The notes beneath the pieces are model-generated. The model searched no databases. It was given only the letters and a program-made list of their open reading frames with translations, and was not told the DNA's origin. From the NCBI GenBank assembly GCA_947629035.1, contig CANRCE010000004.1, positions 1-55,043 on the forward strand: 55,043 bases of DNA, written 5' to 3'. The stretch comes from an uncultured Bacilli bacterium (lineage in GTDB: Bacteria > Bacillota_I > Bacilli_A > RF39 > UBA660). A program made the translations under genes and the position numbers. Shown here piece after piece: positions 3,950 to 42,547 of the stretch (position 1 is the stretch's first letter; every line of letters begins with the position of its first letter).

Positions 3950-4648
3950 TTAGATTTTAATAATCGAAGAAAGTCGTTTTATGACTTTTTTTTCTATTCT
4001 CGAAATATAAGATTGAGATATTCCTAAAAGTTCAGCAACCTCTTTTTGAGTAAGTTCTTCCTTACCATTTAATCCATAACGTAATTCTATTATTTCTTTA
4101 TCTCTTGGATTTAATTTTGCTACTTCTTGATATAAAAGATTACGATCTAACTGTTCATCAAGATTTTTAGTTACTAAATTAGCATCTGTCCCCAATACAT
4201 CTTCAAGATGAAGTTCATTACCATCACTATCAAAACTCAAACTATCATCTAGAGAAATTTCCGTTCTTTTTTTCTTTGTCTTTCTTAAATACATAAGTAT
4301 TTCATTATCAATACATCTTGATGCATATGTTGCAAGTTTAATATTCTTATCTAATTTATAAGTATTTACTCCTTTAATTAAACCAATAGTGCCAATTGAT
4401 ACTAAATCTTCCAAATCAATATTGGTATTTTCATATTTTTTAGCAAGAAATACAACTAATCTTAAATTATGTTCAATTAATTTATTTCTTGCCTTGGTAT
4501 TTCCTTCCATTGATTTTTTTACATATTCATATTCTTCTTCTTTACTTAAAGGTTCTGGTAAAATATCACTACTACCTACATAGAATACATAATTTAACTT
4601 TGCTAATAACTTTAATAACAATTTTAACATACCTCTTTCTCCTTTCAT
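3950..4648 (-). CDS. sigE: Pro-sigma-E, mother-cell sporulation sigma factor
   Basis: Basic/hydrophobic pro-sequence, 'YVGSSDILPEPLS', 'EDLVSIGTIGLIK', 'ISQSYISRIEK'; coupled to spoIIGA. Confidence 0.93.
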   Translation of the reverse strand: MKGERGMLKLLLKLLAKLNYVFYVGSSDILPEPLSKEEEYEYVKKSMEGNTKARNKLIEHNLRLVVFLAKKYENTNIDLEDLVSIGTIGLIKGVNTYKLDKNIKLATYASRCIDNEILMYLRKTKKKRTEISLDDSLSFDSDGNELHLEDVLGTDANLVTKNLDEQLDRNLLYQEVAKLNPRDKEIIELRYGLNGKEELTQKEVAELLGISQSYISRIEKKVIKRLSSIIKI

Positions 4649-5418
4649 ATTAAATCCTTATGTAATATACAATCAACACCATCGATATTTATTTTATTCT
4701 CTAAAGTAGCTATTAAAACATTAGTAATAGTTCTATTTTCAACTACTATTTTATCAGGCTTATAGCATTTTAATAAACCATGAGAGGATACATCATGGTA
4801 GGGAGTCATTATAAATTTCTTATTTTTTAAATTAAAAAGATGAGGATTTACTAAAATAATAGGCCTTTTTAAATAAGGATCATATAAATTATTTCCCGTA
4901 TCTAAATATGCTGTTAAATTCTTTTTTTCATTATTTATATATATGCTAATTTCGTAGTAATTAGAATAATGTTGTTTTATTTTTCTATTACTTTTTAAAT
5001 AAAAATAAAGAATTAAAGGTGATATTAATAATATAATAATAAAATTTAAGGATAAACCATTATTATAAAAAATTAATCCATTATTTTTATAAGCAAATTC
5101 TATTTTTAAAAAATAAAGAAAACCTCCATAGATAATACTTATAAGATATAAATATAATATATTATTTAAAGTATATCTTATACCTTTATAACCAAATACT
5201 ATTAACACCATAATTATAGCTATAATTATTTTAAAGAAAAATAGCAGTAATGTCGTTGTTTTTATAAATAAAAATAATAAACTAATACTACCAAAAATTG
5301 CTCCCAAAATAAGTCTTTTTATTTTTACTCTTCTTTTTAAGACAATTGTAGTGGTAATAAGAAGCAATAAATCAATTAAAAAATTAAGAATAAATACCAA
5401 ATCAAGATATACTGTCAT
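4645..5418 (-). CDS. spoIIGA: Sigma-E processing aspartic protease
   Basis: 'MTVYLDLVFILNF', several TM helices, catalytic 'LDTGNNLYDP'. Confidence 0.93.
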   Translation of the reverse strand: MTVYLDLVFILNFLIDLLLLITTTIVLKRRVKIKRLILGAIFGSISLLFLFIKTTTLLLFFFKIIIAIIMVLIVFGYKGIRYTLNNILYLYLISIIYGGFLYFLKIEFAYKNNGLIFYNNGLSLNFIIILLISPLILYFYLKSNRKIKQHYSNYYEISIYINNEKKNLTAYLDTGNNLYDPYLKRPIILVNPHLFNLKNKKFIMTPYHDVSSHGLLKCYKPDKIVVENRTITNVLIATLENKINIDGVDCILHKDLI

Positions 5419-27911: not shown

Positions 27912-28536
27912 ATTTTTGTGCCTTTAACATATTTATTTTTACATTTAATTTAGAAAATTTTTCTTCATATTCAGTTGTTATATTTTCTATATTTTCATTA
28001 TGTAAATCATTAGTTTGATATATTATTTTATATCCATAATCTTTTAATGTATCAAGAGAAAAATTAAATAATAATAAATTATCTGTTTTCATTATAATAT
28101 TCTTTTTATCTTTAAAAATATTGTCATATTTTTCTAAAAATACTCTACTTGTTAATCTTCTTTTATAATGTCTATCCTTTGGCCAAGGATCAGAAAAATT
28201 TAAATATAATACATCTATTTCTTTATCAAAAACATAAGATATAAATCTAGCATCTAATCTTACTATCTTTAAATTATTTAATTCTAATTCATTTGATTTT
28301 TGAATAGCTCTTACAATGACAGAATCATACTTTTCAATACCAACATAATTAACATTAGGATTTAACATAGCTTTTTCAATTAAAAACTTACCCTTCCCCA
28401 TTCCTATTTCTAAATGTATTTCATTATTATTACCAAATAATTCATGCCATTTTCCTTTATATTCAAAAGGATTTTCTATATAGTATTTACCTTTTACTAT
28501 AATATCTTTAGCTCCTTTTATATTTTTAAGTCTCAT
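27910..28536 (-). CDS. trmB: tRNA (guanine-N7)-methyltransferase
   Basis: 'LEIGMGKG', 'NFSDPWPK.RH.KRRLT', 'KTDN', 'TEYE'. Confidence 0.96.
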   Translation of the reverse strand: MRLKNIKGAKDIIVKGKYYIENPFEYKGKWHELFGNNNEIHLEIGMGKGKFLIEKAMLNPNVNYVGIEKYDSVIVRAIQKSNELELNNLKIVRLDARFISYVFDKEIDVLYLNFSDPWPKDRHYKRRLTSRVFLEKYDNIFKDKKNIIMKTDNLLLFNFSLDTLKDYGYKIIYQTNDLHNENIENITTEYEEKFSKLNVKINMLKAQK

Positions 28537-28571
28537 AATGCCTCCTTTTTAGTATTATATCATAACTATAG

Positions 28572-28601
28572 GCACTTTAAATAAATAAATTGCATATAAT
28601 A
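28572..28601 (+). promoter_or_regulatory. SigK-type promoter
   Basis: GCAC, 17 bp, CATATAATA. Confidence 0.55.
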
Positions 28602-28633
28602 TAACAAATGATAAAGAAAGTGAGTTTGATATA

Positions 28634-28927
28634 ATGAGCGATAGAGATATGTATTATAATTCATATGGTTATGCCCAAGGACCTTATACCAATATGATGC
28701 CACCAATGATGCCACCAATGCCAGTTTTAAATAATCCAATGATGACAGGCAATAATGATTATAATAATAATTATAGTAATACCTATAATGAAATAAATAA
28801 TAAATTAAATAAATTAGAAAGACAAATAAAAAGATTAGAACAAAGAATAGCTAGATTAGAAGTTCCATATAACAATAATACTACAAATATTTATAATGAA
28901 CCCGATAATACAATGTATATGATATAA
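28634..28927 (+). CDS. Hypothetical probable spore/coat protein
   Basis: Tyr/Met/Pro/Asn-rich N-terminus plus coiled coil 'LNKLERQIKRLEQRIARLE'; SigK-like promoter. Confidence 0.7.
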   Translation: MSDRDMYYNSYGYAQGPYTNMMPPMMPPMPVLNNPMMTGNNDYNNNYSNTYNEINNKLNKLERQIKRLEQRIARLEVPYNNNTTNIYNEPDNTMYMI

Positions 28928-28929
28928 CA

Positions 28930-29105
28930 AACAAAAGCGACTTTTAAAAGTCGCTTACCCAATAATATAGGCTAAATTAATTTAAGGAGATTATAGTATT
29001 ACTATAAATATATCAACTTTAGTTTAAAACTTCAAACTAGGGATGATATCTATATAGCCTGTGATAGTCTTGAATACACTAAGTAATACTAATTTGTGTA
29101 TTCAC
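28930..29105 (-). ncRNA. Candidate structured small RNA (~175 nt)
   Basis: TATAAT at 29115-29110; four helices plus terminator; no ORF. Confidence 0.55.
28935..28956. terminator. Bidirectional terminator
   Basis: Perfect palindrome AAGCGACTTTT/AAAAGTCGCTT; U-rich tail on minus strand. Confidence 0.75.
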
Positions 29106-29136
29106 TTTTATTATAAGTATTTTTTTTATTTTAATA

Positions 29137-29949
29137 CTATTTTTCTCTTATTTTCGTTGTATTAATAACAATACCTAAAATAAAGACATAACTTATCATA
29201 TATAACCAAATCATTAAAATAATAATACTAGATAAATTTCCATATAAAATATCGTATCTTGCAAAATATTTTAAATAATATCCGAATATTGCTGTTAAAA
29301 CAATCCATAATATAGTTGTAACTAAAGCTCCTTTCGTCGTATCTTTACTTAACACTTTCGTAGAGGGAGCAATCGTATATATAAGTTTAATATTAAAATA
29401 TAAAATCAAAAAAGTTATAGGCCATTTTATAATCGTAAATAGGAATATTACTTCATCAATGATATTTTCTAAAATATCATTATTTTTGATAAATTCTAAT
29501 ATCTTTTCTCCAAAAGTTGGAACAATAATTAAAAATATTAATAAAGTTAAAATTGTAATTAACAAAATAACTGATTTAATTCGATTTTTTATTGCATCAC
29601 TTTTTTCAACATGATATAACGTATTAGAAGCTTTTACAATAGCATAAGTTCCATTAGTAGCAATAACAAAAGCTGCAATATTAAAAGCTCCAACTGCATT
29701 ATCAAAACCTTTACCAGATATAATTTCAATAACAAAATTACTAGCTTGTTGTGGTAATAAATTATTTACAAAAGTAATGACGCTATCAATAGAAATATTA
29801 AAAGAAGAGGCAATCAGGATAATTAAAGTTAAAATAGGAATTATGGCTAAAACAAAGTTATAAGCTAACGAAGCAGGTAACATACCCATCTCAATTTTAG
29901 CTAATGTTTTATATATTTTTTTTACATATTCCTTGATTTTATCCCACAT
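29137..29949 (-). CDS. YihY/BrkB family membrane protein
   Basis: 'ASLAYNFVLAIIP', 'YDILYGNLSSIIILMIWLY'. Confidence 0.9.
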   Translation of the reverse strand: MWDKIKEYVKKIYKTLAKIEMGMLPASLAYNFVLAIIPILTLIILIASSFNISIDSVITFVNNLLPQQASNFVIEIISGKGFDNAVGAFNIAAFVIATNGTYAIVKASNTLYHVEKSDAIKNRIKSVILLITILTLLIFLIIVPTFGEKILEFIKNNDILENIIDEVIFLFTIIKWPITFLILYFNIKLIYTIAPSTKVLSKDTTKGALVTTILWIVLTAIFGYYLKYFARYDILYGNLSSIIILMIWLYMISYVFILGIVINTTKIREK

Positions 29950-32018: not shown

Positions 32019-32486
32019 CTAGCTTCTTGTCCATGATATATCATCTATATATGGATGCTTTGTTCCTACAATAACAGTATCAACAGCATTTTCCTCATCT
32101 TCATTAGCTTTCCATCTTAAGAAATATTCTAAATCATAAAAAGCTAATTTATCTTCTTCAAACATTTCTAATGTTGCCCGAGCAATCTCTTTGGCTTTAT
32201 CTTTAGAAACTGAATTATTAAGTGTAAGTTCTACATAAATAATCTTTCCTTGTAATCGGCATTTAGCCTCTTCGACACCTTCATTTTCCCTTAAACTTGC
32301 ACTCAATGTATCATAGAAAGAATTATCTATTTTAACTTCCTCAATACCATCTAATCTGTTACCATATTTATTTTTACTACCTCCAAAATAAAGACTTAAA
32401 AAAATAGCTATCATAATAATGATAAGTATAAGAGATAAACCTGACAATATTGCTAGTCCTTTATGTTTTTTAATTAAATCAATCAT
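32019..32486 (-). CDS. Hypothetical membrane-anchored protein
   Basis: N-terminal TM, AAGGAG RBS, abuts GGDEF gene. Confidence 0.75.
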   Translation of the reverse strand: MIDLIKKHKGLAILSGLSLILIIIMIAIFLSLYFGGSKNKYGNRLDGIEEVKIDNSFYDTLSASLRENEGVEEAKCRLQGKIIYVELTLNNSVSKDKAKEIARATLEMFEEDKLAFYDLEYFLRWKANEDEENAVDTVIVGTKHPYIDDISWTRS

Positions 32487-32644: not shown

Positions 32645-33223
32645 TTATGTTTGACTTTTATCTTGAGTTGCTGATGCATGAATATAGCCAGAATAAGTAG
32701 CATTAGAATAAGACTCATTTACCAAAGTTTTATCTAACCATACATAAACAGTATAAGTATCTATACTATTACTTAAATCAAAATTAGAATATATTGTTGT
32801 TGCACCAGTTTTATCTATAGTTCCATTAGCAACTTCATTCTCGTTTCCTAAAACACCATTTACAGCATCACCCTTTATAACCTGATATTTTAAAGCTCCT
32901 TTTAAAATAGCATCAGATGTTCCTGTAGTATTAGTAGTTAAATATAAAGTGCCTTTACCTTTTATATTACAGTCACTAGATATACCAATTTTTACAGTTG
33001 TATGTAGACCTGAAGTATAATTATCTCCTGCAGCTAAAACTTGATCACCTCCTGATCCACCGATTTCTTGACCTTTCGTATAGTTGATATTAAAACATCC
33101 TGTTGACCCAGAAATATCAGTATCAGGACTTTTCCAAGTATACCAAGCATAAGTAATTCCTGCAATTAAAGCCATAAAAACCAATACTCCCAAAATAGTT
33201 CCCCATAATTTAGCACTTTTCAT
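32645..33223 (-). CDS. Secreted protein with SipW-class signal peptide (TasA/CalY-like)
   Basis: 'AGITYAWYTW'; 'ALKYQV', 'YTVYVWL', 'YSGYIHA'. Confidence 0.68.
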   Translation of the reverse strand: MKSAKLWGTILGVLVFMALIAGITYAWYTWKSPDTDISGSTGCFNINYTKGQEIGGSGGDQVLAAGDNYTSGLHTTVKIGISSDCNIKGKGTLYLTTNTTGTSDAILKGALKYQVIKGDAVNGVLGNENEVANGTIDKTGATTIYSNFDLSNSIDTYTVYVWLDKTLVNESYSNATYSGYIHASATQDKSQT

Positions 33224-33503: not shown

Positions 33504-33722
33504 TTATTTGTTTTGAGAATTATAGTTAGAACCACTTAATTGGTTTTCTCCTAATTTTACTAATCTCTTAGTAATTTCTCCACCAACTGAACCATTAGCT
33601 CTTGAAGTTGTATCTGGTCCTAAATTAACACCAAATTCGTTAGCTATTTCATATTTCATTCTATCGATAGCTTGTTTTGCTCCAGGAACTACCATTTTAC
33701 TGTTGTTACTTGAATTACTCAT
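33504..33722 (-). CDS. sspA: Alpha/beta-type small acid-soluble spore protein
   Basis: '[34 protein letters not shown]'; downstream of thiI as in Bacillus; AGGAGGTG RBS. Confidence 0.92.
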
Positions 33723-42340: not shown

Positions 42341-42547
42341 ATGGAAAATATTGATGTAAGAGCATACATTATAAATAATTTTAAAGATGATAGTATTGAT
42401 GATATTAAAGGAGCAATCGAAAATTCAATTAAATCAAGAGATGAAGATCCTCTAATAGGACTTGGAGTATTATTTGAATTATTATGGAATAATTCTAATG
42501 ATAGTTTAAAAAAGACAATGTTAAATAATATAAAAAAAGGTATGTAA
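42341..42547 (+). CDS. sspI: Small acid-soluble spore protein SspI
   Basis: 'DVRAYIINNF', 'LIGLGVLFELLW'; ATG 42341 behind AGGTGA. Confidence 0.88.
   Translation: MENIDVRAYIINNFKDDSIDDIKGAIENSIKSRDEDPLIGLGVLFELLWNNSNDSLKKTMLNNIKKGM

Follow-up and report, generated by a model that had tools for sequence, protein, structure and literature searches.

Few sporulation-specific small RNAs (sRNAs) are known, and for the best conserved of them, CsfG, PMC9147052 reports control by the forespore factors SigF and SigG and gives neither a known target nor a phenotype. In PMC3574147, CsfG of Bacillus subtilis is placed between ylbG and ylbH, where it was formerly regarded as the ylbH leader, and is described as having CU-rich conserved stretches and as co-purifying with Hfq. 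Here we describe a structured RNA of about 175 bases, conserved across homologues, that is encoded on the minus strand at positions 28930-29107 of a 55,043-nucleotide stretch of DNA (the window; contig CANRCE010000004.1, assembly GCA_947629035.1) from an uncultured Bacilli bacterium, the genome assembly of which (G000) comprises 1.25 Mb in 80 contigs, is 90% complete and has 26% G+C. The RNA is real, conserved and structured, and a chance fold does not explain it. To the reading that it represents a new sporulation-linked sRNA family, which would be transcribed from its own promoter and mask ribosome-binding sites in a CsfG-like design, we give about an even chance.

Two further groups of RNAs are relevant for comparison. 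DapZ is an enterobacterial 3′-end sRNA with an internal promoter that shares the terminator of a coding gene, and MicL is reported to be transcribed from inside the coding sequence (CDS) of cutC. The RNA described here likewise lies at the 3′ end of a coding gene, shares a terminator with it and has a promoter-like element overlapping the CDS end, whereas MicL and DapZ belong to another phylum, have no sequence relation to it and differ in that the start of the new RNA is placed from sequence. The 3′ untranslated region (UTR) of icaR in Staphylococcus aureus and the C-rich Firmicute sRNA RsaE/RoxS use a C/U-rich anti-Shine-Dalgarno motif to mask ribosome-binding sites, and the new RNA carries a motif of this kind as well. 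The icaR 3′ UTR, however, acts in cis by pairing back to the ribosome-binding site in the 5′ UTR of its own transcript, and RsaE uses CCCC loop motifs; their sequences are unrelated to the new RNA, and none is known to be tied to sporulation promoters.

A conserved structured RNA at the 3′ end of yihY

The RNA gene adjoins a gene for a yihY/BrkB-family membrane protein, which together with a gene for a 684-amino-acid GGDEF protein lies upstream on the same strand; on the other side it is flanked by a convergent open reading frame (ORF) of 97 amino acids, with a TrmB-like methyltransferase gene beyond. The minimum free energy (MFE) of the 186-nt stretch was −43.6 kcal/mol compared with −28.6 ± 3.4 kcal/mol for 200 dinucleotide shuffles (z = −4.40), none of which was as good. 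A terminator scan of 28300-29700 returned a single intrinsic terminator (28956-28935; 0.2 expected), and no ORF of at least 20 amino acids was found inside the RNA body on the RNA strand. Short frames through the 5′ hairpin lose frame between homologues, as judged by eye, and a coding reading was rejected. Rfam 15 gave no match at the gathering score across the 55-kb window, 6S included, and the RNA family is absent from Rfam. At E ≤ 10 the region had only two sub-threshold matches, both driven by the terminator. The better of them, Spy1786666 (RF02591), reached 28.4 bits over 28934-29012 (the terminator and an A/U-rich spacer) against a gathering score of 64 bits. Its alignment to the region breaks many of the consensus pairs, and the new RNA is not a member; Ref55 reached 20.3 bits where 43 are needed.

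Homologues were collected by several searches. With blastn, one homologue (G005) was found in 41 relatives and 11 confirmed full-length or two-part matches in 401 genomes of the same family (G188, G085, G127, G314, G206, G066, G045, G005, G092, G049 and G288); many other matches at E ≤ 0.01 were short A/T-rich stretches, and a match in G400, for which confirmation failed, was excluded from every count. The covariance model R1 added G009 and G001 among the 41 relatives and gave no match in 16 genomes outside the host family. A degenerate pattern scan of genome contigs produced at least 119 stretches, from which 80 loci were taken, 25 of them matching the covariance model; the exact pattern AGTAATACTA N0-3 TAATCTCCTTAAA proved too strict and returned a single record, apparently the G005 contig, to judge by an identical contig number and overlapping coordinates. 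A yihY-anchored sample of 62 loci was obtained via YihY protein relatives, and among the 51 that were scanned 12 carry the RNA just 3′ of yihY, 38 do not and one (L204) is doubtful. At least 33 distinct homologues from uncultured small-genome Bacilli emerged, and all counts out of 33 below refer to the model-based alignment A6 of 33 distinct sequences. The carriers are deposited as 'Bacilli bacterium', 'Clostridium sp. CAG:302', 'CAG:762', 'Firmicutes bacterium CAG:321', 'uncultured Tenericutes' and 'Bacillales bacterium UBA660'. Within the searches made, the family is restricted to one uncultured Bacilli family with genomes of about 1 Mb in which sporulation genes are present.

The gene context is conserved on one side only. 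In two samples, yihY directly precedes the RNA in all 23 homologues examined for context, and the order GGDEF-yihY-RNA is kept in each of the 12 loci with 1.5-kb flanks. Because the gene 3′ of the RNA varies among these 12 loci and is often convergent (five cases), the RNA is not the leader of a downstream gene. The position of the yihY stop codon ranges from 30 nt before the start of the alignment, itself a few nt 5′ of the 5′ hairpin, to 18 nt inside the alignment; the interval contains no terminator, and the RNA shares that of yihY. The closest YihY relatives of the G000 protein (52-61% identity; L185-L189, L191 and L231) are encoded at loci without the RNA and have instead a long K/E-rich C-terminal extension, followed, in L185 and L186 at least, by a plain hairpin that resembles a terminator.

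From 5′ to 3′, the RNA consists of a 5′ hairpin (H1), the motif CAGRCUA, an optional middle hairpin, one strand of a long-range helix, the motif UCUCCUU, a pre-terminator hairpin (P4) and an intrinsic terminator (Table 1). In A6, standard pairs make up 96.8% of the 1029 cells, and 21 of the 37 pairs have changed on both sides, a result approached by none of 500 shuffles and by no slid register. A6 was fitted to the nested helices, which flatters these somewhat; that they are real is indicated by the slid controls and by the variety of pair types. G-U pairs are compatible with the minus strand alone, pair 165-183, for example, being G-U in 18 rows. H1 has compensatory changes in six of seven pairs, with 99% of cells paired, and its stem GAAUACAC/GUGUAUUC is replaced in homologues by GAGUACU/AGUACUC, GGAUAC/GUAUCC or GCGCAUA/UAUGCGC. 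The inner stem of the middle hairpin, which has letters in only 13-15 homologues and is missing from the short and third subtypes, has compensatory changes in four of six pairs.

In addition to the nested helices, a long-range helix of 11 bp joins a distal 11-mer to the H1 loop or, in short forms, to the 5′ end of the RNA. The loop sequence UAGUAUUACU (site 1) is exactly complementary to AGUAAUACUA (site 2), a stretch immediately 5′ of the CU-rich motif, and RNAalifold selected this helix in both alignments folded. It is 98% paired; seven of the 11 pairs are invariant, two have G-U-compatible changes only (A to G in three rows, C to U in one), and the terminal pair is U-A, A-U (L228) or C-G (G001). 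Both sites are present in 30 homologues and both absent in three (L196, L203 and L208), and no homologue has one alone; because the helix was left out of the search model, these counts are not fitted to it. In G001 the internal palindrome of each site is lost, yet the sites remain complementary over 7 bp, which favours RNA pairing over a DNA operator. Six short homologues have no H1 stem: site 1 lies 5-6 nt after the −10 box, and its pairing with site 2 makes a long hairpin with CAGACUA in the loop. In G000, the helix has an energy of −10.7 kcal/mol versus −3.3 kcal/mol for the local hairpin UUAUAGU/ACUAUAA (29007-28991), which overlaps the invariant 11-mer of site 2.

The UCUCCUU motif, which lies between helices, matches the ribosome-binding sequence AAGGAGA with full complementarity, and the mean unpaired probability of CUCCUU is 0.62 compared with 0.41 for whole RNAs (0.80 in G000). 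An outer stem (P2) formed by AGGCUA (29060-29055) and UAGCCU (28974-28969), in which CAGRCUA would pair with the 5′ strand of P4, is not supported, only 56% of its cells being paired in the fixed register. In any register, cognate duplexes average −5.4 kcal/mol and non-cognate duplexes −4.4 kcal/mol, and P2 may possibly be an alternative conformer that competes with the covarying P4.

The original prediction, made from the G000 sequence, had proposed a multi-helix non-coding RNA, assigned to no known family, that exposes an anti-Shine-Dalgarno sequence in an unpaired stretch, AUCUCCUUAAA (28991-28981, minus strand). All helices and motifs it listed occur in the sequence, and the folding energy, the covariation, the coding scan, the unpaired probabilities and the Rfam scan, which covered CsfG/ylbH as well as 6S, agree with it on each of these counts. 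The prediction is largely right in its general sense, with its structure model revised. Covariation supports its H1, its terminator and, where present, its middle hairpin; the UUAUAGU/ACUAUAA hairpin yields to the site 1/site 2 helix, which was missed along with P4, and the outer stem was not borne out by the homologues.

Table 1. Elements of the RNA gene and its surroundings, in window coordinates.
Feature	Position	Strand	Remarks
yihY/BrkB-family membrane protein gene	29137..29949	−	PF03631, E = 1.3e-47; 270 amino acids; RNA adjoins its 3′ end
−35-like GTATT	29133..29137	−	its G closes the yihY stop TAG
−10-like TATAATA	29109..29115	−	17-nt spacer from GTATT; ends 4 nt before the H1 base
5′ hairpin H1 (UGAAUACAC/GUGUAUUCA)	29071..29104	−	16-nt loop; in MFE structure
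Site 1, UUAGUAUUACU in H1 loop	29082..29092	−	5′ strand of long-range helix; picked by RNAalifold
CAGGCUA (consensus CAGRCUA)	29055..29061	−	27/33 homologues; probably single-stranded
Optional middle hairpin AUAUCA..UAGUUUG/UAAACUA..UGAUAU	29010..29049	−	in MFE structure
Site 2, AGUAAUACUAU, distal 11-mer	28993..29003	−	3′ strand of long-range helix
UCUCCUU, anti-Shine-Dalgarno-like	28984..28990	−	32/33 homologues; between helices
Pre-terminator hairpin P4 (GCCUA/UGGGU)	28957..28972	−	5/5 pairs compensatory; 92% of cells paired
Intrinsic terminator (AAGCGACUUUUAAAAGUCGCUU and U-run)	28929..28956	−	5/8 pairs compensatory

The convergent 97-amino-acid ORF (window 28634-28927, plus strand) ends 8 nt from the terminator hairpin of the RNA. 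Its product has a P/M-rich N-terminus and a coiled-coil-like segment (...RLEQRIARLEVPY...) and no Pfam or NCBIfam match, and G188 carries a similar ORF (...RLDQRLTRLETPY...) at the equivalent position beside the RNA.

The promoter-like element and sporulation genes of the host

The promoter-like element overlaps the yihY stop codon (TAG, 29139-29137) by one base in G000. A generic sigma-70 scan was uninformative (15 sites, 13.2 expected), and we compared the element among homologues, where the −10 variants are CATAATA, CATACTA, TATAATA and AATAATA. The strict pattern GTAT[AT]-N17-NA[ACT]3TA stands beside the RNA start in 14 of the 33, with C, T and A as the first −10 base in five, seven and two cases, respectively, and a −10-like heptamer is found within 40 nt in 26. 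In the short subtype, GTATA-N17-[C/T]ATAATA lies within a non-coding spacer of 20-30 nt that follows the yihY stop and ends 5-17 nt before the first structured element of the RNA. Its 17-nt spacer varies in sequence and is fixed in length, and such fixed spacing in variable non-coding sequence is a promoter signature.

The B. subtilis SigG consensus is GHATR-N17/18-CATNNTA. In G000, the small acid-soluble spore protein (SASP) gene of the window is preceded by GTATT-N17-CAACCTA, sspI by GTATA-N17-CATAATA and the spoVT-like gene by GTATT-N17-CACAATA. The pattern GTAT[AT]-N17-[CT]A[ACT]3TA has 22 matches within 150 nt upstream of ORFs in G000, nine of which have a C-type −10, and eight of these nine, including those of ssp, sspI and the spoVT-like gene, are at most 41 nt from a start preceded by a Shine-Dalgarno sequence. 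Because the C-type motif GTAT[AT]-N17-CA[ACT]3TA is no commoner in G000 (44 occurrences) than in composition-matched controls (49-52), what is informative is its concentration before genes and not its abundance. By eye, spoIVA is preceded by ATATT-N14-CATAAGAT and the spoIIID-like gene by ATAAA-N13-CAATATAAT, that is, by an ATA-type −35 without G and a shorter spacer, as in a mother-cell-type arrangement. According to PMC3789822, SigF and SigG have similar consensus elements, while SigE and SigK have a common −10 and different −35 elements. From these sequence patterns it is credible that the RNA has its own promoter and that this resembles the forespore promoters of the host.

Four further genes of G000 without an assigned function have GTAT[AT]-N17-CA[ACT]3TA 16-24 nt before the start and are candidate members of a forespore regulon (C5:1675-2168, C12:7451-7760, C13:23950-24244 and C27:10221-10956). 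They encode a 142-amino-acid DUF2383-like protein, a 79-amino-acid helix-turn-helix protein and proteins of 73 and 221 amino acids.

Sporulation genes are recognisable in G000 and are spread over the window and contigs C1, C5, C28, C39 and C74. A SigG-like sigma factor scored 349 bits (cut-off 372), a SigE-like factor 324 bits (cut-off 339; window 3953-4657, minus strand) and a SigK-like factor 303 bits (cut-off 252), and a SigF-like factor is also encoded; the match to the Spo0A C-domain is weak. The window holds the alpha/beta SASP gene (33537-33698, minus strand; 75 bits) and the gene for SspI (42341-42547, plus strand; above cut-off), and the assembly also encodes SpoIVA (706 bits), a SpoIIID-like and a SpoVT-like protein. 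A genome of 1.25 Mb is very small for one able to form spores, and the presence of this programme ran counter to our expectation. Two ORFs of 155 and 192 amino acids (32019-32486 and 32645-33223) without a Pfam match separate the SASP gene from the GGDEF-yihY-RNA unit, and all of these are on the minus strand.

Predicted mode of action and target searches

In the reading that we favour, transcription would start from the RNA's own promoter at the very end of yihY, and the match to the pattern of ssp, sspI and the spoVT-like gene would mean that the RNA is made during sporulation; it may also be produced as the 3′-terminal part of the yihY mRNA. The scaffold would keep UCUCCUU free to pair with the Shine-Dalgarno regions of target mRNAs and thereby block translation initiation, and pairing of UCUCCUU with Shine-Dalgarno sequences is the most likely mechanism.

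A number of observations weigh against this reading. The promoter had originally been called more SigG-like than SigA-like at −35, and this stands to the extent that sporulation sigma factors and SASP are encoded and that the pattern is shared with ssp, sspI and the spoVT-like gene and recurs in 14 homologues; in the other 19, for the most part long forms with a yihY frame that extends to or into H1, the strict pattern is absent. The G000 −10 sequence TATAATA could be read by SigA too, the −35 sequence GTATA overlaps conserved yihY codons (K-Y-N), so that its conservation may be partly protein-coding, SigF and SigG appear inseparable by these patterns, and the comparison with mother-cell sigma factors comprises two genes judged by eye. 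SASP is present in 14 of 14 confirmed RNA-bearing genomes and in 243 of the 401 genomes of the family, an association that is suggestive and confounded by shared ancestry. One homologue, G045, has UACCUAAUU in place of UCUCCUU. In addition, no specific or conserved target emerged from scans of G000 and relatives. The best non-self match of the extended-complementarity scan of G000 (−27.5 kcal/mol, contig C2) precedes only a seven-codon frame and is no genuine ribosome-binding site, and among 121 loose matches to complements of CAGGCUAU near Shine-Dalgarno sequences none stands out and no clustering at starts was seen. The two-site pattern GGAG N1-25 TAGTCTG was as frequent in five RNA-bearing genomes as the reversed-pattern control.

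A YjcZ-family gene on contig C17 (C17:20976-21155; TIGR01732, 22.4 bits, cut-off 21.35) was considered as a target, since the Shine-Dalgarno sequence of its mRNA and AUGUAUUACUAU pair with the anti-Shine-Dalgarno motif and site 2 in G000 at −20 kcal/mol. The candidate was rejected, which also counts against the favoured reading: ATGTATTACTA is present in seven of 14 RNA-bearing genomes and in three of four without the RNA, and because the start sequence is common to genomes without the RNA, there is no sign of co-evolution. The tiny YjcZ-family sporulation protein itself (MYYYGGYSGG...) was found in 18 genomes (loci L258-L281), namely in 14 of 14 RNA-bearing genomes, G000 included, and in four of seven relatives without the RNA. 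The sequence ACTATATTAGA is almost invariant upstream of yjcZ in the rows displaying it and is probably a sporulation-type −10 region.

Relationship to CsfG and alternative explanations

We compared the RNA with the ylbH family (RF00516; gathering score 50 bits), which represents CsfG. RF00516 gave no match at E ≤ 10 on 28600-29400, and a search of the complete G000 assembly at E ≤ 1 was likewise negative, with a B. subtilis control scoring above the cut-off; in 40 relatives no match exceeded the cut-off. Read on the CsfG strand, its consensus runs from a 5′ hairpin, with UUUCCCCA in the loop, through a UUUCUCCUCU linker and some 39 nt to a terminator. Both RNAs are about 110-180 nt long, belong to endospore-forming hosts and combine a 5′ hairpin, CU-rich stretches between helices and an intrinsic terminator, and the promoter pattern of the new RNA resembles that of forespore-type genes in G000; CsfG is reported to be under SigF and SigG control in the forespore. 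They differ in gene context (GGDEF-yihY instead of ylbG-ylbH (rsmD)), in motifs (CAGRCUA and UCUCCUU instead of UUUCCCCA and UUUCUCCUCU) and in the 11-bp loop-to-distal helix, which has no counterpart in the ylbH consensus. By analogy, the new RNA may work like CsfG without being a member of the CsfG family. A weak ylbH/CsfG match in the family member G014 (L183 1501-1590, minus strand; 23.9 bits against 50, hairpin part) may reflect chance or a CsfG remnant.

The same comparison bears on the idea that the RNA is an extremely diverged CsfG orthologue, a question of ancestry that is compatible with the favoured reading and that we judge very unlikely to be answered in the affirmative. Canonical CsfG went undetected in G000 and stayed below the cut-off in 40 relatives despite their sporulation genes, and the order of elements and the CU-rich conserved stretches are similar; against this stand the lack of an RF00516 match to the region, the different gene context, the absence of a counterpart to the UUUCCCCA loop motif, and the fact that the ylbH consensus has neither CAGRCUA nor the site 1/site 2 helix. 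A different function is conceivable if the scaffold presents the single-stranded motifs CAGRCUA and UCUCCUU to a protein, which they would bind or sequester, instead of to mRNAs; an RNA chaperone or a factor recognising the 16S rRNA 3′ tail would be examples. Conservation of the two motifs and of the 11-bp helix is almost complete and exceeds what pairing needs, the target scans gave no specific mRNA, and CsfG, the nearest analogue, co-purifies with Hfq and has no known target (PMC3574147, PMC9147052). We nevertheless consider such a decoy quite unlikely, as no partner protein was identified or is encoded alongside and no motif is repeated as it is in known protein sponges.

The RNA could also be a cis-acting 3′ UTR of the GGDEF-yihY mRNA that controls its stability or, as in the icaR 3′ UTR, its translation via pairing to its own ribosome-binding site. 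Its position fits, as it follows yihY in all 12 context loci and all 12 yihY-anchored carriers with no terminator in between and with the yihY stop from 30 nt before the alignment start to 18 nt past it, and UCUCCUUU complements AAAGGAGA, the Shine-Dalgarno sequence of yihY. This complementarity, however, is generic to a strong Shine-Dalgarno sequence and extends no further, the short forms have a promoter-like element with fixed spacing in their non-coding spacer, and yihY evidently does not need the RNA, given that 38 of 51 yihY loci are without it (one more is doubtful). That the RNA is merely a yihY 3′ UTR had been named at the outset as an outcome that would speak against a separate sRNA, and by its constant attachment to the 3′ end of yihY the RNA is also the 3′ UTR of that gene; we regard a purely cis-acting role as unlikely. 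That there is no RNA at all, and that an AT-rich chance fold or a DNA inverted repeat (an operator or recombination site) merely accompanies the ordinary yihY terminator, is largely refuted and scarcely credible. Hairpins are easily found in a genome of 26% G+C, and the near-palindromic 11-mers of sites 1 and 2 could bind protein as DNA; compensatory changes occur in four helices, however, the site 1/site 2 helix has changed in the G-U manner tolerated only by RNA of the minus strand, and the sites of G001 keep their mutual complementarity without an internal palindrome.

What is new here, and well supported, is an RNA family absent from Rfam, with 33 sequences, four covarying helices and one pseudoknot-like helix. 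More speculatively, and we think improbably, a lineage-specific forespore sRNA might replace CsfG in spore-formers with tiny genomes and act as a general competitor for ribosome-binding sites that aids the shutdown of translation toward dormancy, with the H1 loop as a lock on the adjacent strand; the anti-Shine-Dalgarno strand beside an 11-bp helix would then resemble the 16S rRNA 3′ tail after helix 45. If the sporulation-linked, ribosome-binding-site-masking reading is true, the RNA would be a second, unrelated RNA of the same design, in which a structured scaffold transcribed from a forespore-type promoter exposes a CU-rich anti-Shine-Dalgarno strand, in a lineage without detectable CsfG. 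Masking of ribosome-binding sites would then seem to be a general requirement of spore development, and a comparison of CsfG with the new RNA could show their common features. In these uncultured gut Bacilli, whose genomes are about 1 Mb in size, the sporulation programme is recognisable and its promoter signals can be read.

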